Virus record (IMG/VR): IMGVR_UViG_2734482538_000012
Direction: 5' to 3' (one strand)
From: a virus
Taxonomy: Duplodnaviria; Heunggongvirae; Uroviricota; Caudoviricetes
DNA: 49,248 nt
The notes under the pieces were generated by a model. The model had not been told where the DNA came from. It made no database searches and saw only the letters and a program-made list of their open reading frames with translations. A program made the position numbers and the translations under genes. Shown piece by piece: positions 1 through 31,067 of this stretch. Position 1 is the stretch's first letter, and each line of letters starts with the position of its first letter.

Positions 1-212
1 CACAACATCCGAGGACAGCATCGTCCGCTGGCCCACAGAAGTCCGGAAAGTCATGGAAGGTCGTTGTTGGGAGGAGGTACAAATTCTCTCATGCAAAAAA
101 TACGTAAAATCGATAATAGCTGGAAATAATTCAATACATGCACTCTCGAAAGTGCATCAGCCAACCGCAGAACGTTATTGCATACAACGTTTCTGCGGCA
201 TAATCCCAATGA

Positions 213-797
213 TTACTCCCTGACAGGGTTCGTAGGCCACTCAATATCAGGTGCAGTTGACGTATCAACACGGTTCAGCAATACCCGATACTTTTTCCAT
301 GCTTCCAGCAACGAGATTTCTTCCTCCGTTGCAATTTCCAGATCTGCAGCATCCTGAAGCGGCGCAATATGCTCACTGGCTACCTGCATCAGGTTGTTTT
401 TTGTTTCTTCCGCCTCCCGGATCCGGAACAGTTTTTCTGCTTCCGTATCCTTCACCCAGGCTGTGCCGTTCCACTTCTGAAACTCCCCTTCCGGCGATAA
501 CCAGGTAACATTTTCCGGTAACGGACCGAGTTCAGAAATAAATAACGCGTCGCCGGAAGCCACGTCATAAACCGTTTTACCCCGATGATCTTCAACGAGA
601 TGCCACGATGACTCATCACTGTTGAAAACAGCCACGAAGCCAGCCGGAATATCTGGCGGTGCAATATCGGTACTGTTTGCTGGCAGACCTGTATGAGGCG
701 GAATATATGCATCACCTTCACCAATAAATTCATTAGTTCCGGCCAGCAGATTATAAATTTTTATGGTCCGTGGTTGTTCACTCATTCTGAATGCCAT
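213..797 (-). CDS. tfaR: Tail fibre assembly protein (Tfa family)
   Basis: 194 aa ORF directly downstream of the side tail fibre gene, start codon overlapping its stop; N-terminus [20 protein letters not shown] matches my recollection of Rac TfaR and lambda Tfa. Confidence 0.85.
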
Positions 798-3757
798 TAT
801 GCAAGCCTCACAATATAGTTAAATGCGATGTTTTTGACGGTGTTTTCCGCGTTACCAGCAGCGTTAACGGTGATGGTGTGTCCATGTGAACCAATCGCAA
901 CGGAGTGCGTATGAGCACCAATACCGACAGTATGCGCGTGTGCACCTGCAGATGCTGCTGTGCCGGACAGTGAATGGCTATGATTACCATCTATACTGGT
1001 ATTCGCTAACCACCCCGTAGACATACCTACTGAGCCTTGTACACCCCAGGTATTTTGACCTGAGCTTGTATAACCATATTGATAAGTATCTTTAAAAACA
1101 CTGGGGTTAAATCGACGGCCATCTCTATGGCTGTGATTACCAGCTGCATTCGTGCTGCCACTTAAACTATGGGTATGCGCACCAGTGTTATTCGTGGATT
1201 TAGTGCCGTAATCAAACGACGATGTGGTTTTCGTCCCCAAATCCGTACTGGATGCGCTGGCGCTGTGGGTATGCGATTTAATGCCGTCCTGTTCCTGAGA
1301 CAATACGGCCCGACCACTGGCAGGTTTGCCCTTAATCGTCCAGCCACGCATATCAGGGATCACGCCTGACGGATAAGCCGCTGCAAGTTTCGGGTATGCA
1401 GATTTGTCAAAAGCCTGCCCCTGCATCAGGGCATAGCCAGACGGAACGGTATCTGATGGCCACGGGATTGGTGCGCCAGGCGGATAAAACTGCTCTGATG
1501 GCGTATAGAGTGAATAAACTGTACCGTCCGTTAACCCTTCCGGCTTATTAGCAGAATATGCTGGTGACGTATGAATCGTCACGCTGGCATTACTGGTATA
1601 ATCCCATTGAATATTTACACCAGTCGCATAATTTCCGATTGCAACGTAAATATCGTAAGTATCACCAGATGTATTAACCCAGGCAAAATTTGTAAACCCT
1701 GTCAATGTGCGCTGCCATAAAGCACCAGTAATCCCCTTCGGATTACCATTACCTGCACGTAAAACAAGTTCAGATATACCTGCCTGTTGAGGTGACCCCA
1801 CGTTAAATCCAGCGCCACCAATCAACGTAATTGAAACAACAGAACTCGCCTGTGGCATGGTTACCGTTGCTAATTTGAACCAACCAGCACCACCGCTGAA
1901 TGACATTGTTGTTGAGTTAAGCGTACCAATATCTTTCGGCGTCAGTGTTATATCCGCTGAAAGCGCCTTACCATTCACCTTACGGGCAGAAGGTACCCGA
2001 CCATTCGCATTGTCATTAGCTGCTTTCACTGCTTTCGGTGTCGCAGCAAGCGTTTCAGATGTGCTGTTGGTTGCACTACTGAGCTGGACAATTCCTTTTT
2101 GTGCTGTCGTAGCGTCCTGTGCGGTGTATTTCCCGTTAGCCAGGTCATACGCGGCCTTAACGGCTTTTGGCGTTGCCGCCTGTGACTCGGAAGTGCTGTT
2201 AGTCGCACTGCTGAGCTGAACTATCCCTTTCTGTGCTGTCGTTGCATCCTGTGCGGTGTATTTCCCGTTAGCCAGGTCATACGCGGCCTTAACGGCTTTT
2301 GGCGTTGCCGCCTGTGACTCGGAAGTGCTGTTGGTCGCACTGCTGAGCTGTACTATCCCCTTTTTCGTCGTGCTCGCATCCTCAAGCGCCACGGCGGATG
2401 CAATATCCTCTGCCCGTTTTGCTGCTGTCTCGGCGCGCGTTGCCGCGGATTCCGCCGTACTTTTGCTCTGTGCTGCCGCTGCCGCACTGCCAGCAGCCTC
2501 TGTCGCCTTCGTGGATGCCGTCGTGGCGCTGCCCCTCGCTGCTGACGCCTGTCTGGTCGCCTCATCTTTTGAAGCAGACGCAGATGATGCCGATGACGCC
2601 GCCGAACTGGCGGACGATGCGGCAGCCGTTTTTGAGGATTCTGCGCTGGTTTCCGACGCTTTCGCGTTCGTTTCGGATGTCTTCGCTGCGGAAGCAGACC
2701 TCGCTGCTGCGCTGGCCTGTTCAGTGGCTTCGCCAGCCTTCGTTGTGGCTGTTGAAGCGGATGATGCGGCGCTTTCTGCCGATTTTCCGGCGGCGGTGGC
2801 ACTGACTGCTGCCTCCTCTGCCTTAATGGACGCCTCACGGGCCGATGATGCAGCTGCTGTCTCAGAGTCTGCCGCAGCTGAGGCGCTCTGTTCCGCTGCC
2901 GTTTCAGAAGACTTAGCATTCGTCTCGGACGTTTTTGCCGCCTTCACGGAATTTCCTGCCGCCGTTGCCGAGGAGGCTGCACTGCTGGCGCTTGTGGAGG
3001 CGTTCGTTTCTGATGATTTTGCCGCCTCTTTGGAGGCCGCCGCATCTCTGGCTGAAGTGGCGGCTTCTGACGCTTTCGTTGTCGCAGTGGATGCAGAAGT
3101 GGCTGCTGATTTTTGTGACGCTGCAGCATTCGTTTCTGACGTTTTCGCCGCACCGGCACTGGTGGCCGCCGCGCTTTTTGAGGACTCTGCAGCGGCAGCA
3201 CTTTTTGATGCTTCAGTGGCCTTTGTTGATGCCGTTCCTGCGCTGGAAGACGCCTCCTGAGCCGAAGTCGCGGCCTGTCCGGCTGACGTGCTGGCTGCAC
3301 GCGCTGAGCCTGCAGCATCAGTCGCATGGGTTGCCGCCTCACGGGCAGATGTGCCGGCATCACTGGCTGACTTCTTCGCGGCTGCCGTGTTCTGTGCCAC
3401 CGCGGACGCGTTACGCGCCACCTCTTCCACCATCAGTTCAAAACGGCGCAGAGCCTCCGGACGGGCATCATCCTCCGTCATGGCACCGAGAAAATCATTC
3501 AGCGTACCGGGTCGGGAATCTTCATACACAGTGATGGTCCCGGCATGTGACGGCGGGAATCCTTCCACCAACAGAATAACGCTGTACTGACCGTACTCAA
3601 CGTCCATGCTGTAACGCCCGGCTTCATCCGGATTTTCTGAGGCCAGCGTGTTCACCACCACCGTGGTGCTGTTACGTTTTGCTTTCAGCTGGATTGTGCA
3701 GTTCTGTACCGGTTTTCCTGTGCCGTCTTTCAGTACACCTGAAATCTTTACTGCCAT
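797..3757 (-). CDS. stfR: Side tail fibre protein with a long Ala/Ser/Thr-rich shaft and three 44-aa phage tail fibre repeats
   Basis: 988 aa ORF (track start 3763 is GTG; first ATG at 3757 gives [12 protein letters not shown]). Position after lom and before tfa; three copies of a [15 protein letters not shown]...[10 protein letters not shown] motif; C-terminal His-rich region. Confidence 0.85.
1975..2365. repeat. Tandem in-frame repeats of about 132 nt (about 3 copies) inside the tail fibre gene
   Basis: Near-identical nucleotide blocks starting near 2101 and 2233 (gtgctgtcgt...gctgagctg.actatccc) with a partial third copy; they encode the 44-aa protein repeat. Confidence 0.7.
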
Positions 3758-3765
3758 ATTCACCC

Positions 3766-3795
3766 CACAAAAAAGCCCGCCTGAACCGGCGGGCT
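3766..3795 (-). terminator. Rho-independent terminator downstream of lom
   Basis: GC-rich inverted repeat agcccgcc-tgaacc-ggcgggct; on the minus strand it is followed by a T-run (tttttgtgggg). Lies in the lom-stf intergenic region. Confidence 0.6.
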
Positions 3796-3821
3796 GTCAT
3801 AACACTGTGTTACCTGGCTAA

Positions 3822-4628
3822 TCAGAACTTATAACCGACACCCACGATGAAACCGTCAGTGCGCCAGTCGCCACTGCCGGAGCCTTCATAAGCAATATCA
3901 ATGGCCACGGATTCGGTCGGGTTAAACTGCACGCCAGCTCCCCACGCCAGAGACGTGTTGCTGTGGCGACCGTCATCACTTCCGGTCAGCACATCGTNNN
4001 NNNNNNNNNNNNNNNNNNNNNNNNNNNNNNNNNNNNNNNNNNNNNNNNNNNNNNNNNNNNNNNNNNNNNNNNNNNNNNNNNNNNNNNNNNNNNNNNNNNN
4101 NNNNNNNNNNNNNNNNNNNNNNNNNNNNNNNNNNNNNNNNNNNNNNNNNNNNNNNNNNNNNNNNNNNNNNNNNNNNNNNNNNNNNNNNNNNNNNNNNNNN
4201 NNNNNNNNNNNNNNNNNNNNNNNNNNNNNNNNNNNNNAATCCCCGGAAAAAGTCGACACACGGCTGTAAGCCACACCCGCCATCGCATACGCGCTGAACC
4301 ATTCATTCACGCGCACAGACGGCCCCGCCATCACGCTGAACCAGCGGTTACGCACGGAATCTTCATGCCAGCGGGTATCGCTGTAACGGGTCAGCTGGCG
4401 ATTCTTGTCTCCTGCATAGCTGAATGACGTCACCAGCCCCAGCGTATCCGTAAACTCATAACGGTATTTCACGTTAATCCCGTTCAGATCATCACTGCCG
4501 GGAACGTTGGTCCGGGCATGAAGATACCCCGCGCTCAGCGTGGACTGATGTTCAGACGCCCATGCAGGCGCACCGGATACGGCCAGGCAAATGGCTGCGG
4601 ACAAAATGGCTGCACAAACTTTACGCAT
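3822..4628 (-). CDS. lom: Outer-membrane protein Lom (Ail/Lom family), interrupted by an assembly gap
   Basis: N-terminus MRKVCAAILSAAICLAVSGAPAWASEHQSTLSAGY and C-terminus ...DGFIVGVGYKF match my recollection of lambda Lom; a 240-nt N-run replaces a short internal segment. Confidence 0.8.
   Translation of the reverse strand: MRKVCAAILSAAICLAVSGAPAWASEHQSTLSAGYLHARTNVPGSDDLNGINVKYRYEFTDTLGLVTSFSYAGDKNRQLTRYSDTRWHEDSVRNRWFSVMAGPSVRVNEWFSAYAMAGVAYSRVSTFSGDXXXXXXXXXXXXXXXXXXXXXXXXXXXXXXXXXXXXXXXXXXXXXXXXXXXXXXXXXXXXXXXXXXXXXXXXXXXXXXXXXDVLTGSDDGRHSNTSLAWGAGVQFNPTESVAIDIAYEGSGSGDWRTDGFIVGVGYKF
3998..4237. other. Assembly gap (240 N) inside lom
   Basis: Run of N characters in the sequence. Confidence 0.99.
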
Positions 4629-4698
4629 AATTACCTCTCGCTTTTCTGCAATAAAAAAGGCGTCATTCCTGACGCCATTTATTGGGGTTATAAATATT

Positions 4699-7600
4699 TC
4701 AACGAATACTGATGCCGGAAGCCGCTTTTTTGGTCACAATCACCGTACAGTCGGTGATATTGCCTGCCCCCTGATTGCCTTTCTGGAAAATCTTAAACTC
4801 CAGAGTGACGCTACCACCACCACTAGGCATATCAATAACTGCACTGTAACTACCGGGAATGGCACCTTTAGTTTCTCTGGATGCGATTAATACGCCGTTT
4901 TTGCGAACTTCAAAACCATAACCCGTGTATCGCGTGCCTCCCGGGTTATTTCCGCTCCCCGGATCGTCATACGCTATACCGTTAAAAATAATGGGCGGAA
5001 TAATAATCTGGCGGTCAAAGTTATGATCATCGCTGATGGTGACTGTAACCGTACCGTCTGGTGTTTCCGTGTTACCCCACGTACCGACTTTTTTCGGGAA
5101 GGCTTTTGATACAGCTTTAACGAAATCCCCTCTGACCTGGGTCGCCTCCAGCATGCCCTTAATCGTACAGTTCTGGTTAATCGTGACATTGTTGAGCGTT
5201 CCTGAGTTCGCATTCACACTACCACTGATATCCGCATTTTTAGCGGTCAGCTTTCCGTCTGATGTCAGGGAAAATACCGGAGGACTGCCACCGCTGGTAA
5301 TGGCGGGGGCTGTCAGGCGCTTCAGGAACACGTCGTTCATGAATATCTGGTTGCCCTGCGCCACAAACATCGGCGTTTCATTCCCGTTTGCCGGGTCAAT
5401 AAACGCGATACGATTGGCGGCAACCAGAAACTGGCTCAGCTTGCCTTCCTCCGTGTCCTCCATGCTGAGGCCAATACCCGCGACATAATGTTTGCCGTCT
5501 TTGGTCTGCTCAATTTTGACGCCCCACATCGCATTCCATTTATCGTTAGCGTCCTTCCACTCTTTCGAAAACTCATCCAGTCTGCTGGCGTTATCCTCCG
5601 TCAGATCAACTTTTTCCAGCAGCTCTTTACCGAGATGGGATTCGGTTATCTTGCCTTTGAAAAAATCCAGGTAACCTTCCGCATCATCGCTCGCCCGACC
5701 GACGGCCTCCACGAATGCCGATTTGCCAACGGTGTTCACACTGCGGATATAAAAGTAATAATCATGGCCCGGTTTGATATTGATACTGGCGGCTATCCAG
5801 TACAGCCCCGCGCCAAGGTAGCGGGCTGTGGTTTCAACCTGCCTGATATCGGTAATCCGCGTTTCCGAGAACCAGAACTCAAACTGTACCGTCGGATCAT
5901 AAACCGCAAGATGCGGCGTGGCAGTTATCTGAAAATAGCCCGGCGTCAGCTCAATCCGCGACGGTGCTACCGGTGCGGCAATCCTGAACGATACCGACGC
6001 CGGATCGCCCTGCTGTCCCCAGGCATTTACCGCCCGGACTGTCAGCGTGTACCGTCCCAGCGCCAGTTGCGTGAAGCGGTATGTGGTTTCCGTCGTCCGG
6101 GCCGTGCTGACCNNNNNNNNNNNNNNNNNNNNNNNNNNNNNNNNNNNNNNNNNNNNNNNNNNNNNNNNNNNNNNNNNNNNNNNNNNNNNNNNNNNNNNNN
6201 NNNNNNNNNNNNNNNNNNNNNNNNNNNNNNNNNNNNNNNNNNNNNNNNNNNNNNNNNNNNNNNNNNNNNNNNNNNNNNNNNNNNNNNNNNNNNNNNNNNN
6301 NNNNNNNNNNNNNNNNNNNNNNNNNNNNNNNNNNNNNNNNNNNNNNNNNNNNNNNNNNNNNNNNNNNNNNNNNNNNNNNNNNNNNNNNNNNNNNNNNNNN
6401 NNNNNNNNNNNNNNNNNNNNNNNNNNNNNNGCCGTCAGGAACACGGCTCACTTTCACCTTCACGCCGTCGGTGACGGACTGAACCTCCACGCTGACCGGA
6501 TTGCCACTTCCGTCAACCAGGCTTATCAGCATGGTACCGGAGGATGGCAGCGTGATTTCACGGTCGAGCGTCAGCGTCCGGGTCTGGCTGTTTACCGCCA
6601 GCACGCGCCCGCCGATGCTGATACCCGCATAGTCATCATCACAGATTTCAATGACATCGCCCGGCACATGGCGAAGCCCTTCTGCGCCCACGCTGAAGTC
6701 CACGGTCTGCGTTTCCAGCAGTTCTGTTTTAATCAGCCACAGCCCGGCGCGGTGTGCCTGCCCCCGGCTGGTACAGCCAAAAGCATCCATCTTCGTGACG
6801 TTACGACCGTAACGGGCAATGGCCTGCGTATCCTCCACAAGCTCTGTCGCCGTCTCCCAGCCGTTATCCGGGTCAATCCAGTTCACCTCAACGGCATTAT
6901 GGCGGTCTTTCAGGGCGCTGAAGCTGTAGCGGAACGGCGCGCCATCATCCGGCATCACCACATTACTGCGGTTATAGGTCCACACCTTATCCGACGGTCG
7001 GTCCTGCACGAACGTCAGCGTCTGCCCGTTCCATACCGGCATACAGCGCATCGCCGAGCAGAAATCACTGAGCACATCCCACGCCTTGCGCTGTGTGGTC
7101 AGGTACGCATTACAGGTGATGCGCGGCTCCGTGCCGCCAAAGCCGTCCGGCACTGACTGGTCGCAGTACTGGCCGATGACATACAGCGCCCATTTGTCCA
7201 CATCCGCCGCACCAAGACGTTTCCCCATGCCGTAGCGCGGGTGGGTCAGCATATCCCACAGACACCAGGCCATGTTGTTGCTGTATGCTGGTTTTAACGT
7301 TCCGTCCCAGATACCGCTGTATTGTCGCGTCTGCGGGTTATAGTTCGACGGCACCTGCAGAATGCGCCCGCGAAGATGATAATTACGANNNNNNNNNNNN
7401 NNNNNNNNNNNNNNNNNNNNNNNNNNNNNNNNNNNNNNNNNNNNNNNNNNNNNNNNNNNNNNNNNNNNNNNNNNNNNNNNNNNNNNNNNNNNNNNNNNNN
7501 NNNNNNNNNNNNNNNNNNNNNNNNNNNNNNNNNNNNNNNNNNNNNNNNNNNNNNNNNNNNNNNNNNNNNNNNNNNNNNNNNNNNNNNNNNNNNNNNNNNN

Positions 7601-8682
7601 NNNNNNNNNNNNNNNNNNNNNNNNNNNNNNNNNNNNNNACAGCGCATCGCCGAGCAGAAATCACTGAGCACATCCCACGCCTTGCGCTGTGTGGTCAGCC
7701 AGGCATTACAGGTGATGCGCGGCTCCGTGCTGCCAAAGCCGTCCGGCACCGACTGGTCACAGTACTGGCCGATGACATACAGCGCCCATTTATCCACATC
7801 TGCCGCACCAAGACGTTTCCCCATGCCATAGCGCGGATGGGTCAGCATATCCCACAGACACCAGGCCATGTTGTTGCTGTATGCCGGTTTTAACGTTCCG
7901 TCCCAGATACCGCTGTATTGCCGCGTCTGCGGATTATAGTTCGACGGCACCTGCAGAATGCGCCCGCGAAGATGATAATTACGGCTCACCTGCTGGCTGC
8001 CGAACTGCTCCGAATCCACCTGTACGCCGACCAGTGCCGTGTTCGGGTAGCACTGTTTCACATCGATGATTTCGGTGTATGACGACCAGAGCGTTTTGTT
8101 CTGCAGCTGGTCTGTGGTGCTGTCCGGTGTCATCCTGCGCATCCGGATACTGAACGGGCGCGGAGGCAGGTTATCCACCACCACCGAGACCAGATACTGC
8201 GAGGTGGTTTTGCCCTTAATGGTGATGTCTTTTTCCGTCACCCAGCCACCGTTACGCTGTATCTGAACCAGCAGGCGAACTTCAGACGGATTCCTGTCTC
8301 CCTTTGAGGTGGTTTCCACCAGTGCCTGTACACCGAAGGTAAAACGCAGTCGGTCAATGTTTGCCGACGTGATGGTCCGGGTGATCGGCGTGTCATATTT
8401 CACTTCCGTACCCAGCACCGTCTCGGAGCCGGAGGATTCAAACCCCTCCGGCGGTGACTGCTCCTGCTCACCTGCCCGGAACACCACCGTGACGCCGGAG
8501 ATGTTGGTATTCCCCTCATTGTCCAGCACCGGCGTACTGTTCAGCAGCACGCTTTTTAATCCATCCACCGGACCTTCAACCGGCCCTTCACTGATGGCAT
8601 CGATCACACTCAGCAGCTGCGTGGACTTCAGGTTGTCCTTCGCTTCGCGCGGGGTATGCCCCTTACTGCTGCCTTTACCCAT
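4699..8682 (-). CDS. J: Tail tip / host specificity protein J, fragmented by two N-gaps and a duplicated flank
   Basis: Three track ORFs (7294-8682, 5951-7354, 4699-6444) are collinear pieces of one J-like protein; N-terminus [41 protein letters not shown] matches lambda J as I recall it; the C-terminal part lies upstream of lom as in lambda. Confidence 0.8.
6113..6430. other. Assembly gap (318 N) inside J
   Basis: Run of N characters. Confidence 0.99.
7043..7983. repeat. About 345 bp of J sequence present on both sides of the 7388-7638 gap as non-identical copies
   Basis: Sequence from acagcgcatcgccgagcagaaatcactgagc to gatgataattacg occurs at about 7043-7387 and again at 7639-7983 with roughly a dozen substitutions; both encode [32 protein letters not shown]... 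Confidence 0.85.
7388..7638. other. Assembly gap (about 251 N) inside J
   Basis: Run of N characters. Confidence 0.99.
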
Positions 8683-8742
8683 TCCTCACGCTCCATAAAC
8701 GACAAAACCGCCCGCAGGCGGTTTCTCATAAAACATTTTGCA

Positions 8743-9390
8743 TCAGCGACCAATCACCACAACCTGACCACCATCCCCTTCGTCTGCCGTGCTGATCTCC
8801 TGAGAAACCACACGTGACCCCACGCGCATTTCCCCGTACAGAACAGGCAGAACATTACCCTGGGCAACCATGTTATCCAGTGACGAGAAATACGTGTTCT
8901 GTTTGCCGTTATCTGTACTGGCTGCCGTGGGCGTCCTGGCTTTCGGTGCCAGCATCTGCGCCACACCACCCAGGATCATACTGGCCCCTGCTGCATACAT
9001 ACCCGATACAGCCGCGGCCCCCAGCCAGCCCACAGGGTTCCACCATGCCACCGCAATCAGCGCCGCACCCAGCACCGCCTGAAACACACCGCCACTTTTG
9101 GCACCCGCCAGACGCGGAACGATGTGGATCACGGCACCATTTGCCAGCGGTTCATTAAGACGGGCAGATAATTCATTTTCGCCTGCATCACGCCCGGCAA
9201 TGCGCACCTGATACCAGCCGTCGCTCAGTTTCTGACGAAATGCCGGGAGCTGTGTGGCCAGTGCCCGGATGGCTTCGGCCCCCGTTTTCACACGAAGGTC
9301 GATGCGGCGGCCAAATCGCTGCAAATCCCCGTAAAGGCAGATGCGTGCCATGCCCGGTGACGCCAGAGGGAGTGTGTGCGTCGCTGCCAT
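8743..9390 (-). CDS. I: Tail assembly protein I
   Basis: 215 aa; N-terminus MAATHTLPLASPGMARICLYGDLQRFGRRIDLRVKTGAEAIRALATQLPAFRQ and C-terminus ...EGDGGQVVVIGR match lambda gpI as I recall it; overlaps the 3' end of K as in lambda. Confidence 0.85.
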   Translation of the reverse strand: MAATHTLPLASPGMARICLYGDLQRFGRRIDLRVKTGAEAIRALATQLPAFRQKLSDGWYQVRIAGRDAGENELSARLNEPLANGAVIHIVPRLAGAKSGGVFQAVLGAALIAVAWWNPVGWLGAAAVSGMYAAGASMILGGVAQMLAPKARTPTAASTDNGKQNTYFSSLDNMVAQGNVLPVLYGEMRVGSRVVSQEISTADEGDGGQVVVIGR

Positions 9391-10031
9391 TTGTCGGTAT
9401 ACCTCTCTCGTTTGCTCAGTTGTTCAGGAATATGGTGCAGCAGCTCGCCGTCACCACAGTAAATGGCGGCATGATTCGGCACCGATGAACCAAAACAGCA
9501 CAGCAGCACATCGCCCGGCTGCGCCGTTGACAACGGCACCTGATACAGCCCTGTAGCCTCCAGATTATCCAGATAGAGATTCTGACCATTACGCCACCAG
9601 TCGTCCTCACGATGAAAATCTGGCATCTCAATTCCCGCCAGATGGTAAGCGTCCCGGAACAGCGTGTAACAGTCCGTCACCCCGTGCTCAAAGCGCCGCC
9701 CGGTGAGATGCGGCACACAGCGGAACTTGTGAATCGCCCCGCGGCAGACCAGCCACCACGACAAATCACTCTGCACCTGCAGCCGCCGGTCGGCCTCACT
9801 CAGCCAGGGCAGACCACCGGGGTGGCTGTGGACCAGCGCCACAATCTCACCCTGCATCTCTGCCTGCAGCCAGTCCTCCGGAGCCATCCGGAAATACTCC
9901 TCCGGCTCACCGGAAATATTCACGCAGGGAAAATATCTTTCCCCCTCCGGTGTTCTCACCACGAAGCCGCACGACTCCGCTGGCGCACATCGCCGGGCGT
10001 GCGCCAGAATCGCTGATTCTGTCTGTGTCAT
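9288..10031 (-). CDS. K: Tail assembly protein K (MPN/JAMM plus NlpC/P60 domains)
   Basis: 247 aa; JAMM-like HSHPGG motif; Cys/His pattern typical of NlpC/P60 (GVTDCYTLFRDAYHLAG); gene order K-I. Confidence 0.85.
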   Translation of the reverse strand: MTQTESAILAHARRCAPAESCGFVVRTPEGERYFPCVNISGEPEEYFRMAPEDWLQAEMQGEIVALVHSHPGGLPWLSEADRRLQVQSDLSWWLVCRGAIHKFRCVPHLTGRRFEHGVTDCYTLFRDAYHLAGIEMPDFHREDDWWRNGQNLYLDNLEATGLYQVPLSTAQPGDVLLCCFGSSVPNHAAIYCGDGELLHHIPEQLSKRERYTDKWQRRTHSLWRHRAWHASAFTGICSDLAAASTFV

Positions 10032-10036
10032 GGGAT

Positions 10037-10735
10037 TTACTGCGAAAGTTTGTTAATGGAAAGGAAGCCGCCAAAGTTGCCGACGTTATTGCGGAACTTA
10101 CAACCGCTCAGGCATTTGCTGCATTTATCCTTCGTGATATCGGACGTTGGCTGGTCATATTCATCCGCGACAGCCGGACCGTGATAACCGCACTCATCAC
10201 CGCGATAGGTCCAGGTGCAGGTATTAGCAAGCATGATGCGCCCCGGAAAAACAGCGCCGTCCGTTTCCGTCGGCGTGGACAGTACAAAGGAGGCACTGAC
10301 CGCGCTCAGTTCGCTGCACTGCTCAATACGCCAGCGGCTGATCACCTCCTGCTCCGGATCGGCGTCACTGTTTCCGTTGACGAAGTTCACCGCATCCAGA
10401 AAACGGGCGTAAACCTTACGCCTGACCACCGTTCCGCCGACCAGACTCTGCAGGTCTTCCGCCATCCCGGTGACCATGCCGTGCAGATTAGAGACTTTCA
10501 GCGTTGGCCTTGCACTGGCACCTTTGCCGTTCATCTCAAATCCACTCCCCTGAATGGGATAGGCCTGATACTGCCGACTCTGCCAGGTGACAGACTCTCC
10601 TTTCTCGTTCTGCTCATTGCAGAAAAAGTAGCGATCCCCGCCTACCTCGGTCAGGTCGATTTCCCAGAGCACCACGCTGGCCGACTGCTCCGCACGAATG
10701 CATTCATTCAGCGTTTCCTGTTGTATGTCCTGCAT
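10037..10735 (-). CDS. L: Minor tail protein L
   Basis: 232 aa, same length as lambda gpL; C-terminal cysteine cluster (CGYHGP...CSKCLSGCKF) consistent with the Fe-S site of gpL; sits between M and K. Confidence 0.85.
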   Translation of the reverse strand: MQDIQQETLNECIRAEQSASVVLWEIDLTEVGGDRYFFCNEQNEKGESVTWQSRQYQAYPIQGSGFEMNGKGASARPTLKVSNLHGMVTGMAEDLQSLVGGTVVRRKVYARFLDAVNFVNGNSDADPEQEVISRWRIEQCSELSAVSASFVLSTPTETDGAVFPGRIMLANTCTWTYRGDECGYHGPAVADEYDQPTSDITKDKCSKCLSGCKFRNNVGNFGGFLSINKLSQ

Positions 10736-11073
10736 CAGATCACCACTTCGTCAAACTGACACGAAAAATCGGTATAGGTGATATGTTCTGTCGCTGACCA
10801 CGTTCGACACACCACTCTGATTTTTCTGTTAATACCCGGCGGGCGCCAAAAAAAAGATTTATAGCCTTCATGCCGGGCTAAAAATTTTTCAAATGAATCA
10901 CGTTCATTCGCCTCAACTTTGAAATCACAGGTGAAAACGCGCAGAGAATGATTAAGTCCATTTGGACTTCGTTGCTCATAACCATCACCAAATCTTACAG
11001 TTTTTATCGATGGTTTATTTTCTGTTTTCATTCCATCCTCTGGTAACCAGTGAAATTCTTCCGTATTAGCCAC
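10735..11073 (-). CDS. M: Minor tail protein M
   Basis: 112 aa; motifs [10 protein letters not shown] and [16 protein letters not shown] resemble lambda gpM; immediately downstream of the tape measure gene. Confidence 0.8.
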
Positions 11074-14000
11074 TTAACATTCCCCCATCACGTCGCATAT
11101 TTAACAGATTGCCCTGCACCCGCTGATCAACCATCCCCATAAGTGCTTTTATTGCCTGAGGGCCAATCTCTCCATTCTGGCCGTCATTTTGAATAGTGAT
11201 TTGGTATACAGGGGCATAGGTAATATCTCCGCCTCCATTACCACTTTTACTATTAATAGCTCTGACACCAAGAGAACCATCGGAAGTTCGTGTTAATGGC
11301 ATAATGGCTTCCGGTCCAGCCTCACCAAAAACACCAGCCCCTTTTGCAAAAGCAAAAAATTGCGGGGAATCATAAATACCGTTCGAATACGTGCTCAATG
11401 ACGGAGACTCATAAACACCGCCCTTTGCATTCGGAATAAATTTACTAATAGCACTCCCGATAGTTCCTAAAATCCCCCCAGAAGAACTGTTACTAATGCT
11501 GTCGAAAATCCCAGTAATTGAAGCCTTTAATGCTATTCGACTAAGATCCGAAATCACGGAAGTAGCGAAAGAACGAAAATTTGCCTTGCCTGTCGTGACA
11601 AAATCACCCAGCGCATCGGTCATCCCATCAAACATCTGAGTCGTGGTTGATTTTATCTGCTCACTGATATCCTTAGTGTCATCCAGCCAGTTATTGAATC
11701 CCTGGGAGGCACCACTAACCCAGTCTCCTGCCTGAATATCGAGCTGCTCGTTTTTCTGTCTGACAATTTCTTTTTCCCGTTCCAGAGCATCATTCAGAGC
11801 CTGCATTTTCTCTTGAAAAACATGATCTGACATTCCACGGGATTTATCTGCATAGTCACGTTCAAGTTGCAGACGCTGATTGTTATATCCATGTTCAATC
11901 CGCAGTAATTCCTGCTGGCGTTGCTGATTTTTATCGCCAACCCCATAACCAGCAATCTGAATATCATACCCCTGCTGACGATTATCAATCGAAGCCTGCA
12001 ATGAATCACGCCATGCTGTTATTTCGGCGGATTCCTTGATTAGCCTGTTATTTTTTTCAATCGCAACATTTTTCTCCATCAACGTGGTTATTTCTTCCCG
12101 GTGTAAGAGAAGCGATTTCTGATCCTGGGTTAATTTCGATGATGGTCGTGACTCTAGGTCGGCAATCCGCTGACGCCACTTAACCAGTTCCTGTTCAGAG
12201 GAACTTAATTTAACGGTCAACTCAGCTTGTGAACTTAGTAACGCATTCTGTTGATTCAGATGATCAATCATTCGTTGGGCTGCATCATCAGAATAACCTT
12301 TCGCCTTTGGTTGCTTTGGATCTTTATAACGCTCATTTATTTGAGCGATAAGATTATTATATTCTTCCTTTGAATACTGATTCTTTAGCTTTTCCAGTTT
12401 TGCAAGTTCACTAGCTCTCTGCTGCTCCCGGGTCTGATATTGTTTTGAAAAGGCATCTGCTCTCTGTCTGAGTTCAATTCCTTCCTGTTGTCGCTTGTTG
12501 TAATCGTTTATTGATGAATTTAGTACGTCCTGAGCAATTTTTTCTGCTTGAAGTACGCCCAATTGCTGCTTTAATCGTGCCAGCCTTTTATTTTGAGCTC
12601 CGCCATCTCCAATGCCACCTAACCCGAAAACTCCGGGTCGGGTATTTTTTTCTATTTCATCAATTTGACGGAGAACATCTGAGATTTTTTGATCAAGGGA
12701 GGCCTCACGGCCAATATCCAGCATGGAATCCCATGCCCATTTTGCGGAGTCTGCGACAGCTTTCCATGCAGTCTCAAGATAACCAAGATTTTCTTTAATC
12801 TGGTTGGTGCGCTGGATCATTGAGGATGAGTATTCTTCTGTCGCAATGCGGGCGGCCTCCTGCTGGTTCCCTTCATCCTGTAGCGCCTTAATCTGGTTAT
12901 AAGTCGCAAGTGTCAGAAAATGGTACTGATCATTAAGTTTTGATATGGCACTGACAGGATCCTTTGCAATTTCATTGAAGTCATTAACCAGTTGTTCGGT
13001 TGATATTCCTGTTACTTCGCTCGTTTTTACTATCGCTGTCGTCACTTGCTCCAGCGAACTGCTCGCTACCTTTCCCGAACGCACAAGCTGATTTAATACT
13101 GCCGCCGCAGCACCAGTTGTCGAATCAGCCGCATTCCCGGCACGTTGAGCTATATCGCCCAATTGCCCGCTGGTTGTCCCCAACTGATTTCCGGTAAGAA
13201 TAAGAGATTTATTAAATTCGTCCTGCTCCTGAGAGCCTTTATAGTAAGCCAGTCCTAAGACCCCAACGGCTGCTGCGGCCAGGGTAAAAGGATTAATTAA
13301 TCCCAGCACATAAGAACCTACACCTTTGATCGCCGGGCCAATCCCACCGAACATATCTTTTAGCTGGCCGCCCTGCTGCATTAACACCATAAATGGCGAC
13401 TGACCAGTGGACAACCCAACAACAATATCCGTCATTTGTACAGGCAACATGCGCATAGCAAAAGCCGTTTGTTTTGCCGACATTCCGGTTTTGCTTAATT
13501 GTGATTGAGTAACCTCAAGCTCACTCCGCATAGCACGAAGTTTTCCAGAAAGCTCCTCATACATTTCAGGAGAAAGCATCCCCTTAGCTTTTGCTTCATT
13601 GAGCTGTTTCTGTTGTTCTACCAGACGATTAAAAGCAGTTCCGACAGGATCAAGTTGAGCAATCAGACGTTGCAAAGCAACAACCTGTTCATCATGCGCT
13701 TTTGCTGCTTCTCGCTCTGCCTGAGCCTCTCCGGTAAGCTCTCGCCGTGTTTCCTGTATTTTTCGGCTATAATTCTCAAACTGAGAACCATTTATTTTCC
13801 CGGATGCAAACGCAGCATTAAGTTCATCATGCTGTTGTTCAAGATTTCTTAGCGCCGCAGCCAGAGGGTCGATCTTGTCCAGCATTCTTTGAAAGGCCTG
13901 AGCCTGCGCTTCCTGCTGGGCGGCAGCAAGTTTTCCGGCCTTCTCGGCTTCTCTCTGCGCTTGCGCAACCCCGCTCAATTCCTCTGTGGTTTCATTAAGT

Positions 14001-14299
14001 TTACGGACAAGAAATTCATATTCTTCTTTATCAATAAGCCCTTTATCGAAAAATTTCTTTAATTCAGAATAGCGTCGACCGACAGTATCAATTGCGGCAC
14101 CAACTGGATCAATAGCTGCTTTTAATTTTGCGAGCGCGTTCTTCTCATCTTCTGTTGCCTTAGTCACTTTCCCTGCGCTATTTGCAGCAGTTTCCCCAGC
14201 CTGCGTCATTTTGACTAATGAGGAGGTCAGATTGTCAGCATTATTTTTCGCTCCAGTGCTATCAATAATTATTGCGAGACGCGAGGTTTGCTCTGCCAT
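11066..14299 (-). CDS. H: Tail tape measure protein
   Basis: 1077 aa, largest ORF in the tail module; long coiled-coil-like region (Ala/Glu/Gln/Lys-rich); located between G/GT and M. Confidence 0.85.
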
Positions 14300-14464
14300 T
14301 TATTAAAACTCCTGACAACAAAAAACCCACCGCGAAGTGGGTTTCAGGCGACATAATAGTAGATATAGCGATTACGAGGCCACGCAATGCTTTTCTCCAG
14401 GAGCATCATCGATTTAATTAAAGACACCATCACATCTCTGTAACAGAGTGTACGTAATTAACAA

Positions 14465-15234
14465 CTACACACACTGCTCCTGAAAATACTGGTCATCCAG
14501 TGCAAAGATCACTGCTTCAAATTCATCGCGCTCAATCAATACCGGATGAGTGGCTAAATATTCATTTATCTCTGTCAGAGATAAAGGCAAAGGCACCCCA
14601 GCCATTCCAGCATAACGTCGGGCACGGGATATTACCGAATAGGCGTACAACAACTCCTTAAGCACCGGGTCTATTTCTGGTTCCGGTATCGGTGGCAACC
14701 TGAGTTTTTCTCGCTTCCATCTTGCCTTTTCCCCCCTTTCTCCCCCGAACTCCGATAACCACCGCTGGGCAGCTATGGCTTTTTTATCGTATCCTGCTTC
14801 TGCTGCTCTTTACCCTGGGCGATGCTGGCTGCTTCTGCAAGGATCTGCCAGTACAACTCTGGATTCTGCTTAAGCAGCGCGATCCCTCGTTCTGCCGTAT
14901 ATTCCAGTGCAACCTCAACACCATTAACCAGTTCACCAACCCCTTTCCAGTCTTTCAGCAGATAACGAGCGGCATTATCAATGAGTAAATCATCAACAGA
15001 ATCCACCTCGGAAACCTTTGAAATATCAAACTCCTTCGTTCCGACGTGCAAACTGGCATCCATTTTCTCAATGTGGCGACGGATTAATGCATTACGGGAG
15101 CGATACTGATCGTTATCGCTGCTTGCCACCAACAGTTTTAACCCGTCTACAGGTTTTAAGTCCTTCATTGGCGTAAACCAGCGTTCTCCACCAATGATAA
15201 TTTTCTGATTAAGAATAAACATCCATAACCTCAT
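14465..15234 (-). CDS. T: Tail assembly chaperone GT, made by -1 programmed frameshift
   Basis: Hand translation in the -1 frame from the slippery site at the 3' end of G (KKAIAAQRWLSEFGGERGEKARWKREKLRLPPIPEPEIDPVLKELLYAY...) runs into track ORF 14465-14698. Confidence 0.7.
14773..15234 (-). CDS. G: Tail assembly chaperone G
   Basis: 153 aa ORF between the major tail gene and the tape measure gene; ends ...QDTIKKP; Shine-Dalgarno (aggggga) upstream of the first ATG. Confidence 0.75.
   Translation of the reverse strand: MRLWMFILNQKIIIGGERWFTPMKDLKPVDGLKLLVASSDNDQYRSRNALIRRHIEKMDASLHVGTKEFDISKVSEVDSVDDLLIDNAARYLLKDWKGVGELVNGVEVALEYTAERGIALLKQNPELYWQILAEAASIAQGKEQQKQDTIKKP
14779..14785 (-). 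other. Slippery heptamer A AAA AAG (recoding site for the G to GT frameshift)
   Basis: Minus-strand sequence gat acg ata aaa aag cca tag: the X XXY YYZ heptamer lies in the zero frame three codons before the G stop codon. Confidence 0.7.
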
Positions 15235-27072: not shown

Positions 27073-28530
27073 TTAGGAGCGCCAAAAAAAACCTGAAAAC
27101 AATATAATAACAGGATAAATTTCAAGGCGACCAAGAATCATAGCTATGCACATTAAATATTTTGCAATGTCATTAAGCACTCCGAATGACGATGCAGTAG
27201 CCCCAAAACCTAATCCCATATTATTAATACATGCAGCCACTGTTGCAAATGATGTAAGAAAATCATATCCCATACCATTTAACACCAGTATAAAAAACAC
27301 CGTGAAGAGAGTATAAAGAAAAAAGAAACTCCATACAGACCTCATTACACGATCTGTAACTATCTTCCCTCCTACATTTACACTCAACAACGCTCTGGGA
27401 TGAGAAAGCTGATTTATCTCGTGTTTGCTTTGTTTGAAAAGTATAAGAAATCGAAGTGACTTAATTCCACCACAGGTTGAACCTATACATCCCCCAAAGA
27501 AACTTGACAACAGCAAAAACACTATCGTGTGCGTGGGCCAGTTTGCATAATCCTGCGTAGCTAAACCATTATCAGTGAGCATGGAGCTGGCAAGAAAAAA
27601 CGAATGAATAAAACTTCCATGCAAGTCATACATACCTATATGCCAGACCTGGAAAGAGGTAACAATGATCACCCCTAAGGCTATTAACAGAAAGAAACGA
27701 AGTTCAATATCTCTGATTAAAGGTTTTATCGTTTTTCTGCTAATAACAATATACCAAAGAGTGAAGTTGAAAGCCGATAGCAGGGAAAAAGAACCAGCCA
27801 CCAGCTCAACCAAATAGTTATTAAAATATCCGATACTCTCGCTATGAGTTGAGAAACCACCAAGCGAAACTGTGGAAATCCCGTGACAAATAGCATCAAA
27901 CAAAGGCATTCCTGCAAGTCTATAACAGACAATACAAGCAATACCTAATAAAGAATAAGTTATCCACAGTGTCCGTGACGTATCGGCCAGGCGGGGAGTG
28001 AGTTTGTCATCCTTAAATGGCCCCGGCATTTCTGACTGATAAAGCTTTGCACCACCAATACCCAATAATGGCAATACTGCAACCGCCAGAACAATAACTC
28101 CTAAACCACCTATAAAATTTAACTGTGACCGATAGTACAAATATGCCCGAGGTAATGAACTAACATCATCAATTACAGTTGCTCCTGTTGTTGTTATTCC
28201 AGAAACCCCTTCAAACAGAGCATCAATGAACGTTAAATTAAGTTCTGAGTCAATCCATAAAGGGAATGCACTAATAACAGAAAACAAAATCCAAAACATT
28301 ACAATTATAATAAACCCATCACGGGTACGTAATTGAATGCCAGATTTCTTAGTTGTATACCACGCTCCGCCACCAATGCAAAAAAATATAACGAAAGTTA
28401 TAAAGAAAACGAACAGGCTTTTTTCTTTATAAAACAATGCTACAACCATTGGTGGCAACATTGAAAGACTATAGAGCCAAACCAGGAACCCACACATATG
28501 AGTAACAACTCTTACATGAGATGTATTCAT
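27073..28530 (-). CDS. trkG: Trk-system potassium uptake protein TrkG (TrkH/KtrB family)
   Basis: Multi-pass membrane protein with repeated selectivity-filter-like glycine motifs (GITTTG, GLGVIV, SLGGFST, TCGGIKS); start MNTSHVRVVTHMCGFLVW at 28530 matches my recollection of K-12 Rac TrkG; markedly AT-rich relative to its flanks. Confidence 0.85.
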   Translation of the reverse strand: MNTSHVRVVTHMCGFLVWLYSLSMLPPMVVALFYKEKSLFVFFITFVIFFCIGGGAWYTTKKSGIQLRTRDGFIIIVMFWILFSVISAFPLWIDSELNLTFIDALFEGVSGITTTGATVIDDVSSLPRAYLYYRSQLNFIGGLGVIVLAVAVLPLLGIGGAKLYQSEMPGPFKDDKLTPRLADTSRTLWITYSLLGIACIVCYRLAGMPLFDAICHGISTVSLGGFSTHSESIGYFNNYLVELVAGSFSLLSAFNFTLWYIVISRKTIKPLIRDIELRFFLLIALGVIIVTSFQVWHIGMYDLHGSFIHSFFLASSMLTDNGLATQDYANWPTHTIVFLLLSSFFGGCIGSTCGGIKSLRFLILFKQSKHEINQLSHPRALLSVNVGGKIVTDRVMRSVWSFFFLYTLFTVFFILVLNGMGYDFLTSFATVAACINNMGLGFGATASSFGVLNDIAKYLMCIAMILGRLEIYPVIILFSGFFWRS

Positions 28531-30092: not shown

Positions 30093-30488
30093 CTAACCTC
30101 GCATGTCAAAGCCAGATTTCTGAAAATCTCTGTAGACTTCCGGATTGTTGAAGGCCGGAAATTTGGCTTTATGAGCTGCGGACTTTATCGCTTCGCAATA
30201 GGCTTTATCACCGTTACTGGTAGATATTTTTAACGCCGTGCCATCCTGAGAGAATTCCATATGCAACCTGCATTTTTTCCCTTTCCAGTTATGCGGCTCA
30301 TCAAGTTTGGCATTAATTGCAGCTCTGATTCCCCGCGCTTGCGCCCCCCATTCATCCTGATCATCCCAGCGTCCTGAACTGCAACTACCTGTAGCAGTAG
30401 TTTTGTGGCAATCTGAAGGGTGTAAAGGTGTGCATCCCGCAACAAAACCGACCCAAAAAGTCAACATAACGATTTTCTTTAATCCCAC
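30093..30488 (-). CDS. Lipoprotein with TolA C-terminal (domain III)-like region
   Basis: 131 aa; signal peptide with lipobox (FVAGC); C-terminal ...KGKKCRLHMEFSQDGTALKISTSNGDKAYCEAIKSAAHKAKFPAFNNPEVYRDFQ is a paralogue of the adjacent gene and resembles TolA domain III. Confidence 0.6.
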   Translation of the reverse strand: MGLKKIVMLTFWVGFVAGCTPLHPSDCHKTTATGSCSSGRWDDQDEWGAQARGIRAAINAKLDEPHNWKGKKCRLHMEFSQDGTALKISTSNGDKAYCEAIKSAAHKAKFPAFNNPEVYRDFQKSGFDMRG

Positions 30489-30638
30489 TTCTTGCTCCTC
30501 AATCCATTAAAATCTCAGCAATAGTAGTTGTTACGTCCGCCACTGGCTCAGAGCTGACTATCCGCTAAATTTAGCTCAGTGCCGTAGCTGTGTCAGAACA
30601 AACCTAAGCCGAAACCGTTTATTACAAAACAATAAATA

Positions 30639-31067
30639 TCAGGGTTTAAAATCCAGCACCCCATTTTGAAATACTTTATATACTTCCGGCGAAGGGGGGG
30701 CAGGTATATCAGCATTCTTTATCGCATTCATCGCTTCACGACATAAATCGAGGTCTCCACTTTCTCTTTTAACCTCCAGTAGAAGGCCATTCGGGGCCAT
30801 ATGCATTCTCAGTGTACACTCTTTTCCTGAATACTTACTCGCATCCCCGAACTGTTTTTCGATGGCGCTCTTGATTTGATGGGCATACAGACGGATATCC
30901 TCACTAACATCAGAAGTACGTTCAGATGAACTCACATACTGTGTCTCTATTGCTTTATCGGAGTAATATGATGTACGGTCATGATAATTTGTCGATACAG
31001 CATCAGTGCACCCGATAATAATCCCACTAATAATCAACGTAAGAATTGATGCGCTACGAAAACCCAT
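30639..31067 (-). CDS. Lipoprotein with TolA C-terminal (domain III)-like region
   Basis: 142 aa; lipobox (IIGC); C-terminal YAHQIKSAIEKQFGDASKYSGKECTLRMHMAPNGLLLEVKRESGDLDLCREAMNAIKNADIPAPPSPEVYKVFQNGVLDFKP closely parallels the C-terminus of E. coli TolA as I recall it. Confidence 0.7.
   Translation of the reverse strand: MGFRSASILTLIISGIIIGCTDAVSTNYHDRTSYYSDKAIETQYVSSSERTSDVSEDIRLYAHQIKSAIEKQFGDASKYSGKECTLRMHMAPNGLLLEVKRESGDLDLCREAMNAIKNADIPAPPSPEVYKVFQNGVLDFKP

Follow-up and report, generated by a model that had tools for sequence, protein, structure and literature searches.

The window, that is, the whole stretch of DNA analysed (49,248 nucleotides; IMG/VR record IMGVR_UViG_2734482538_000012), carries a lambdoid tail region in the gene order tail-assembly genes, J, lom, stf and tfa. 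It was compared with complete E. coli genomes, among them NCTC9082 and NCTC10444, and with related drafts, of which L004 is the closest one without gaps and L006 is a sister draft. The genes concerned are the following:

797–3757, minus strand: side tail fibre gene stf, complete within contig A and artefact-free; its 986-aa product is found exactly in L004 to L007
3822–4628, minus strand: lom, encoding an Ail/Lom outer-membrane protein, split by a run of 240 N; true length 600 nt
4699–8682, minus strand: J as scaffolded, encoding the tip attachment (host specificity) protein; 3984 positions against a true 3414 nt (1137 aa), with coordinates transferred from J of L004

Runs of N divide this region into contig A, which ends at 3997, contig B (4238–6112, 1875 bp), contig C (6431–7388, 958 bp) and contig D, which starts at 7639. 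The N run between C and D is the only one with a flanking repeat. The runs, and the two copies of the repeat, are as follows:

3998–4237, no strand: N run that interrupts lom; 240 N stand in for 33 bp of the gapless relative L004
6113–6430, no strand: N run inside J, 318 N where L004 has 344 bp
7043–7388, minus strand: left copy, formed by the final 346 bases of contig C; J residues ~233–348, J1 allele type
7389–7638, no strand: scaffold gap of 250 N, very probably spurious; true distance between the contig ends −346 bp, from the flanks mapped onto relatives
7639–7984, minus strand: right copy, formed by the opening 346 bases of contig D; the same J residues (~233–348), J2 allele type (G318S, Y328W)

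A previous sequence-only reading had pointed to two non-identical copies of 345 bp lying flush on both sides of an N gap within J, and they are present as described: 7043–7387 and 7639–7983 align without gaps, in direct orientation, with 332/345 identities (96.2%) and 13 substitutions. The gap had been placed at 7388–7638. Its end is right and its start is one base off, since base 7388 is a real 'A' and the N run opens at 7389; counting this base, the overlap of the two copies is 346 bp with 14 differences. The start-to-start spacing of the pair is 596, and no other direct repeat of 40 bp or more occurs in 3500–9500. Both copies are cut by the gap edges and not by a decay of similarity, the left one stopping at the last real base (7388) and the right one opening at the first (7639); all four repeat boundaries fall on gap edges. 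The two 13-residue peptides quoted from the copies were read correctly; the N runs at 3998–4237 and 6113–6430 had gone unmentioned in that reading. By contrast, the description of about a dozen residue-changing substitutions does not hold, as 11 of the 13 are synonymous and only 2 of 115 codons encode different residues (G318S and Y328W). A mostly synonymous set of substitutions is expected of two real alleles and not of sequencing error.

In relatives, this part of J is present once. The two flanks (6431–7388 and 7639 onwards) map to overlapping coordinates in L001, L003, L004 and L006, and the overlap amounts to 346 bp in NCTC9082, NCTC10444, L004 and L006. The same holds more broadly: 4335 complete genomes cover at least 80% of a 2270-base query, which spans just 1673–1675 record bases in every complete-genome match listed. 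A duplicated copy was thus found neither in the gapless draft L004 and the complete genomes of NCTC9082 and NCTC10444, nor among the complete E. coli genome matches listed. The J segment itself is a multi-copy sequence, matched at a median of 2–3 places per E. coli genome and at up to 13–14.

The coding sequence tells the same story. As scaffolded, J is interrupted by two N runs and by the false duplication, and its reading frame meets a stop at codon 463. Once the gap and one of the copies are taken out, J reads through as an intact protein of 1137 aa, identical to that of L004, in which six gpJ Pfam domains score above their curated cut-offs (FNIII-A_GpJ, Phage-tail_3, Ig_J, Ig_J_second, Phage_Tail_Tip and Ig_GpJ_C). 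It is only after removal of the artefact that the full gpJ domain architecture stands in a single ORF. The neighbouring I-like and K-like tail proteins are identical to those of L004.

The idea that the N runs are length-preserving masks over real sequence was rejected, as two of the three disagree in length with the gapless relative while their flanks are 99.7–100% identical to it. The sister draft L006 has mis-sized N runs too, and in the same genes.

The two copies correspond to distinct known alleles, called here J1 for the J of the syntenic prophage in relatives and J2 for the one found in a second type of lambdoid prophage. With only two residues different between the copies, protein-level searches could not tell J1 from J2. 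Over its 346 bp the left copy matches L004 and NCTC9082 at 100%, 336 complete-genome records match it at 99% or more, and L004 sides with it at all 14 sites that separate the copies. Among 5426 complete E. coli genomes, none matches the right copy at more than 98.5%, which suggested a chimeric consensus occurring nowhere else. This was rejected, as window 7639–8100 is 100% identical to 11 IMG/VR prophage contigs of the J2 type; in these contigs, the tail genes that lie upstream of J share just 93.7% identity with the window. The J2 haplotype is marked by the 50-mer TGTGGTCAGCCAGGCATTACAGGTGATGCGCGGCTCCGTGCTGCCAAAGC. When IMG genomes carrying both the J1 and the J2 50-mers were sought, no taxon id was shared among the matches listed. 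The source assembly was sought in genome_contigs by an exact 50-mer, with 0 hits, and through the tail-fibre ORF with a GTG start, likewise with no match.

The J2 signal extends beyond the right copy. Over positions 1–14534 the window differs from L004 at 30 sites, and at all 30 it has the base of the J2-type prophage. These sites form the following patches:

3993–4864, minus strand: J2-type patch that crosses from the end of contig A into contig B as far as base 627 of the latter (lom and the 3' end of J); 7/7 distinguishing sites
7699–8038, minus strand: J2-type patch at the start of contig D; J2 base at 16/16 sites that distinguish J1 from J2
8278–8356, minus strand: second J2-type patch of contig D; 5 sites, all synonymous, with flanking J1/J2-identical stretches of 88 and 86 bp
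9399–9414, minus strand: third J2-type patch, in the K-like C40 peptidase tail gene upstream of J; 2 sites, with flanking identical stretches of 79 and 112 bp

The internal switch points of these patches lie in stretches of 77–112 bp that are identical in J1 and J2; for a switch at the end of contig A, the shared stretch is only 48 bp long. As a proof of assembly chimerism, the first J2-to-J1 switch in contig D was considered, an argument weakened by the presence of the 131-mer that spans this switch in five other natural J alleles. Given that J is naturally mosaic and that this 131-mer occurs in other alleles, the patches at 8278–8356 and 9399–9414 could be genuine recombination in the strain.

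In our judgement the repeat is, with high probability, an assembly artefact made of the overlapping ends of two contigs that derive from two related prophage J genes, and not a biological duplication. The proposal of the sequence-only reading that two related J genes had been joined across a spurious gap is borne out by the single copy in relatives, by the match of each copy to a distinct known allele and by the restored ORF. The window would be a draft, scaffolded from short reads, of an E. coli prophage of the Rac type located between sitABCD and ttcA; its strain most likely has two or more lambdoid prophages, with J genes ~96% identical to each other. An assembler that lost the phase of the two J genes wherever they are identical over a long distance would have left the J–lom region in short contigs, with contig C ending in native J1 and the first ~400 bases of contig D following the J2 of the other prophage. 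Two contig ends covering the same 346 bp of J would then have stayed unmerged because of the 14 differing positions, and a scaffolder or gap filler may have put one next to the other, separated by an estimated 250 N. The outcome would be an apparent 596-bp 'tandem duplication' that frameshifts J, the real gene being single-copy, intact and 1137 aa long. That both alleles come from one genome as paralogues, which implies a second, J2-type prophage in the strain, is what we infer, and the software step that left the overlap unmerged is likewise a presumed one.

Four other explanations were weighed. In the first, the gap is real and J is a cross-prophage chimera produced by a misjoin: the J2-type start of contig D would be native, as part of a natural recombinant J, and contig C, perhaps with contig B, would have been brought in from another prophage of the same genome through ambiguous read pairs. 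The natural mosaicism of J alleles, the occurrence of the first switch junction of contig D in other alleles, the shortness of contigs B and C, as is usual for collapsed repeats, and the clearly unreliable gap sizes are all in keeping with such a misjoin. It is nevertheless unlikely. At the same chromosomal site, the same prophage in L004, L006 and NCTC9082 is J1 throughout, with B, C and the J1 parts of D contiguous; contig C is 100% identical to L004; and the J2/J1 mosaic of contig D was found in none of the 5426 complete E. coli genomes compared, the best matches reaching 98.3–98.5%.

A second possibility, to which we give quite low credence, is that the J2 patches (7699–8038, 8278–8356, 9399–9414 and 3993–4864) are gene-conversion tracts formed in this Rac-type prophage in vivo from a co-resident lambdoid prophage, the scaffold having accidentally captured both donor-type and recipient-type sequence; less likely than this is a genuine 596-bp tandem duplication of J.

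The third, a mixed sample in which two E. coli strains in one library, rather than two prophages of one genome, contributed the two haplotypes, would likewise yield unmerged contig ends that are 96% identical. It predicts differences along the whole prophage. Those to the nearest relatives are instead confined to the multi-copy segment of lom, J and tail genes: window 25000–49248 equals NCTC10444 at 100.0%, and outside 7639–8740 only 4 mismatches to NCTC10444 are seen in the ~18.7 kb beyond 8740. A mixed sample is hence very improbable.

As for a genuine 596-bp tandem duplication that turned J into a pseudogene, with its middle 250 bp unread or masked as N, the direct orientation of the copies and a would-be junction hidden by the N run can be cited for it, but we regard it as extremely unlikely. 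A length of 596 is not a multiple of 3, and the frame as scaffolded stops early (the sequence-only reading had argued that a real duplication would break the protein). A mask would need to start precisely 346 bases into the first unit and to stop precisely at the duplication junction; the other two N runs are demonstrably not length-preserving; no such duplication is seen among the complete-genome matches listed; and the second copy, far from being a diverged version of the first, matches exactly an allele that belongs to a different prophage.

With the artefact set aside, the true J is an ordinary intact lambda-type tip attachment protein of 1137 aa. The sequence-only reading had also declared the J, lom and tail-fibre coding sequences, and any inference on receptor specificity, unreliable. 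This caution was too broad for stf, whose product equals that of gapless relatives and, in the index of the assembly collection, appears in 425 blocks. It was also too broad for the receptor-binding domain of J (aa 1001–1136), which lies wholly inside contig B, the rebuilt J being that of L004. For the phasing of J and lom alleles at the nucleotide level it was well placed. This phasing is still unreliable, and the same applies to how the contigs are linked and to the sequence concealed by the other two gaps (33 bp and 344 bp).

The value of these observations is one of quality control only. In an annotation of the record, J would come out as a pseudogene or in two or three pieces, with a false internal repeat, and lom as scaffolded would show 80 X residues. 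Inactivation of the tail tip or a novel J variant could then be deduced, and neither is real. More generally, the nucleotide-level lom–J alleles given by short-read drafts of E. coli can be chimeric between co-resident prophages, and SNP or recombination inferences drawn from lom–J should be distrusted without long reads.

In genome assemblies, the copies of a false duplication typically have an assembly gap between them (Ko et al. 2022, Genome Biol 23:205, PMC9516828), and the J repeat resembles the heterotype-like ones in its near-identical adjacent copies, in the gap between them, in its absence from better assemblies, in the unmerged versions of one sequence and in the broken annotation. 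It differs in that the two versions in vertebrates are the haplotypes of a diploid genome, whereas here they most likely are J paralogues from lambdoid prophages that share one haploid bacterial host. The criteria used for the vertebrate cases also include read depth and read-pair discordance, whereas the J case was judged from the assembled sequence.

A second comparison is with the unclosed gaps left by SSPACE and GapFiller (PMC3446322, PMC5320598), which are likewise N runs of variable estimated length located in repeated phage genes. GapFiller extends both edges of a gap and closes it only if the extensions overlap and the size fits the estimate (PMC3446322); edge extension that stays unmerged would leave overlapping contig ends. 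The switches of phase across identical stretches of at least 77 bp (bar the one of 48 bp) fit a k-mer of ~66–90% of a ~100-base read. From this pattern, and from a similar sister draft (CWWG01000004.1), a pipeline of this kind may have been used for the window. Finally, set beside the phage lambda gpJ family, the rebuilt J has the full domain series and the usual gene order, with nothing unusual about it, and its protein is the J of related E. coli drafts.

A scan of the window for Ns places a run of 250 at 7389-7638; the sequence-only reading had the run right, but started it at 7388, which is a real A. When the 600 bases to the left and right are aligned locally, there is one match only, ungapped and 345 bp long, between 7043-7387 and 7639-7983 (332 identities), and a search of 3500-9500 for direct repeats of 40 bp or more returns this pair alone, with a spacing of 596. 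The left copy runs to the last real base ahead of the gap and the right copy begins at the first real base past it. How far the "repeat" extends is thus fixed wholly by the gap edges and not by decay of similarity. The previously reported repeat is therefore confirmed, with both copies flush with the Ns. It lies on the minus strand in a lambda-type tail block, ordered tape measure, M, L, K, I, J, lom, stf and tfa, where J is the tail-tip gene.

Genes, contig pieces and N runs of the region, compared with the gapless draft relative L004, from which the gene coordinates are transferred
J: 4699-8682 (-)
lom: 3822-4628 (-)
stf: 797-3757 (-)
Piece A: 1-3997, 1 mismatch
Gap in lom: 3998-4237, 240 N, 33 bp in L004
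Piece B: 4238-6112, 6 mismatches
Gap in J: 6113-6430, 318 N, 344 bp in L004
Piece C: 6431-7388, 0 mismatches
Gap in J: 7389-7638, 250 N, -346 bp (an overlap) in L004
Piece D: 7639-14534, 23 mismatches

In relatives the segment is single-copy. Of 5426 complete E. coli genomes, 4569 have a J hit by megablast with 6431-8700 as query; in every match listed, each non-N base aligns (89% of the query), but the alignment covers just 1673-1675 bases of the record, equal to the query length of 2270 minus the repeat spacing of 596. The phages listed give the same outcome. On the complete genome of NCTC9082 (L001), 6431-7388 maps to 9001-9958 and 7639 onwards to 9613 onwards, an overlap of 346 bp, and the flanks overlap likewise in NCTC10444. 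The J gene of NCTC9082 (L001 7243-10657) is annotated as a frameshifted pseudogene, with a single-base indel relative to the window near the equivalent of 8212, which may be an assembly consensus error rather than biology. Two drafts were reached through the exact 986-aa tail-fibre protein: L004 (GCA_013463435.1, AATWPU010000003.1), a gapless contig with the same chromosomal context as the window, and L006 (GCA_001247945.1, CWWG01000004.1), a sister scaffold carrying its own N runs.

Since N counts disagree with the L004 lengths at all three gaps, the N runs are scaffold size estimates and not length-preserving masks. The runs at 3998-4237 and 6113-6430 have no flanking repeat. Three gaps are thus mis-sized, where the sequence-only reading named one. 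When L006 is compared with the window, 81 N (8039-8119) stand against 20 bases and 524 N (9313-9836) against about 500 bp, in the same J and lom genes, and scaffolding of J-lom appears to go wrong systematically in this lineage's drafts.

The two copies correspond to distinct alleles: J1, that of the syntenic prophage in relatives, and J2, that of a different lambdoid prophage type. At all 14 sites differing between the copies, NCTC9082 and L004 carry the left-copy base, and the left 346 bp match 336 complete-genome records at 99% or more, many at 100%. For the right 402 bp, the best match in any complete E. coli genome is 98.5%. A 50-mer specific to the right copy occurs in 32 IMG/VR contigs, 11 of which are 100% identical to 7639-8100. 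These 11 belong to the different lambdoid type; past 8100 identity drops to about 97%, and their tail genes upstream of J share just 93.7% identity with the window. A chimeric consensus, considered for the right copy because of the 98.5% ceiling, was rejected on the strength of these 11 perfect matches. The count of about a dozen substitutions held (13), but most do not change residues as had been claimed: 11 of the 13 are synonymous and only 2 of 115 codons differ in meaning (G318S, Y328W), which indicates two functional alleles and not sequencing error.

A site-by-site table and phase analyses of the sites distinguishing J1 from J2 extend this picture.

Allele map of the J-lom region
Contig A: up to 3944, J1
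Contig A: 3993 (its last distinguishing site), J2
Contig B: 4248-4864 (6 sites), J2
Contig B: 4942 onwards (273 sites), J1
Contig C: all 41 sites, J1
Contig D: 7699-8038 (16 sites), J2
Contig D: 8128-8189 (6 sites), J1
Contig D: 8278-8356 (5 sites), J2
Contig D: 8443-9319 (156 sites), J1
Contig D: 9399-9414 (2 sites), J2
Contig D: 9527 onwards, J1

All 30 differences between the window and L004 match the base of the same J2-type loci (L012, L016 and L038). Over 7699-7984 the scaffold shows J1 in contig C and J2 in contig D, so both alleles were present in the read set; this is the decisive point. The six internal switches sit in J1/J2-identical stretches of 77, 79, 86, 88, 89 and 112 bp; by the phase-analysis tally, intervals of such length number only 17 among the roughly 770 that separate distinguishing sites, and make up about 29% of the sequence. 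Such positions fit an assembler with a phasing limit of about 77 nt (in the PMC5320598 pipeline, for example, Velvet k-mers measure 66-90% of the read length) and are consistent with assembly chimerism. They are not decisive, because homologous recombination would favour long identical stretches too. The patches at 3993-4864, 8278-8356 and 9399-9414, in which every change is synonymous, could have arisen by cross-phasing in the assembly or by real gene conversion among co-resident prophages. A genuine conversion origin is conceivable for the smaller J2 patches of D and lom, given that the 131-mer across the first switch of D is present in other natural alleles.

J1 is the native allele of this locus, as the relatives show. 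A misjoin in which the J2 start of D was native and C foreign is accordingly improbable, the three syntenic relatives being J1 throughout, and a mixed culture is very improbable, as the differences are all confined to the multi-copy segment. A real 596-bp tandem duplication in J is scarcely credible: the N run would have to stop exactly at the junction, J would be frameshifted, and the second copy would have to be, by chance, the exact allele of another prophage.

The repeat and gap are an artefact of assembly and hold nothing biologically new. The proposal that two related J genes were joined across the gap is supported by the single copy and 346-bp flank overlap in relatives and by each copy being a distinct allele. 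E. coli genomes hold a median of 2-3 J-like places, and up to 13-14, which is why J-lom splits into short contigs in short-read assemblies. Two contig ends over the same 346 bp would then follow different paralogues, differ by 4% and be unmergeable by exact overlap; the scaffolder would join them by read pairs and insert an estimated gap. Tools of the GapFiller type lengthen the sequence from each side of a gap, and closure requires both an overlap of the two extensions and a size that fits the estimate (PMC3446322). Gap filling of that kind may leave extended, overlapping edges plus leftover Ns. The true distance from 6900 to 8100 is predicted to be 605 bp.

In the scaffold as it stands, the reading frame of J goes from 8682 across the Ns to a stop at codon 463; the 596-base offset is not divisible by 3. 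Rebuilt from D (8682-7985), C, the 344-bp filler of L004 and B, J is a 3414-nt ORF of 1137 aa, identical to the L004 J and with full gpJ architecture (Pfam); using the right copy instead, G318S and Y328W are the sole changes. The duplicated segment (aa 234-348) falls between FNIII-A (86-207) and the start of Phage-tail_3 (330-496), and the receptor-binding Ig_GpJ_C domain (1001-1136) lies wholly within contig B. The lom frame stays open across its N run solely because the run length, 240, is divisible by 3; the true lom is 600 nt. The I-like and K-like tail proteins are those of L004. The warning that the J, lom and tail-fibre coding sequences are unreliable goes too far: the stf coding sequence and the J receptor-binding domain are each whole in a single contig and match gapless relatives. 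Other genomes (L005 and L007) have the identical 986-aa side tail fibre protein (797-3757, -) in a different prophage context, with ynaE, ynaM and a resolvase/invertase gene as neighbours. Prophages thus share the stf-tfa module itself, probably the reason why contig A breaks off at 3997. Within stf, tandem repeats at about 2061-2363 (-), of about 132 nt and about 93% identity, encode three copies of one motif (15 residues, any residue, Q/L, 14 residues).

Overall, the window is a Rac-type prophage between sitABCD and ttcA, with intR, xisR, recET, ralR, kilR, sieB, ydaSTUV, trkG, a P22-family capsid gene and lambda-type tail genes; 25000-49248 matches E. coli NCTC10444 at 100.0%. Judging by how the near-identical region of NCTC10444 is annotated, about 30093-30899 (-) carries a gene for a TolA C-terminal-domain protein, then a tolA fragment marked as a pseudogene, both just upstream of the lysis genes. 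The prophage combines a Rac-type early region with a P22-family capsid gene, terminase genes and tail genes of the lambda type, and the potassium transporter gene trkG (27073-28530, -) sits inside it, as in the Rac prophage of K-12.
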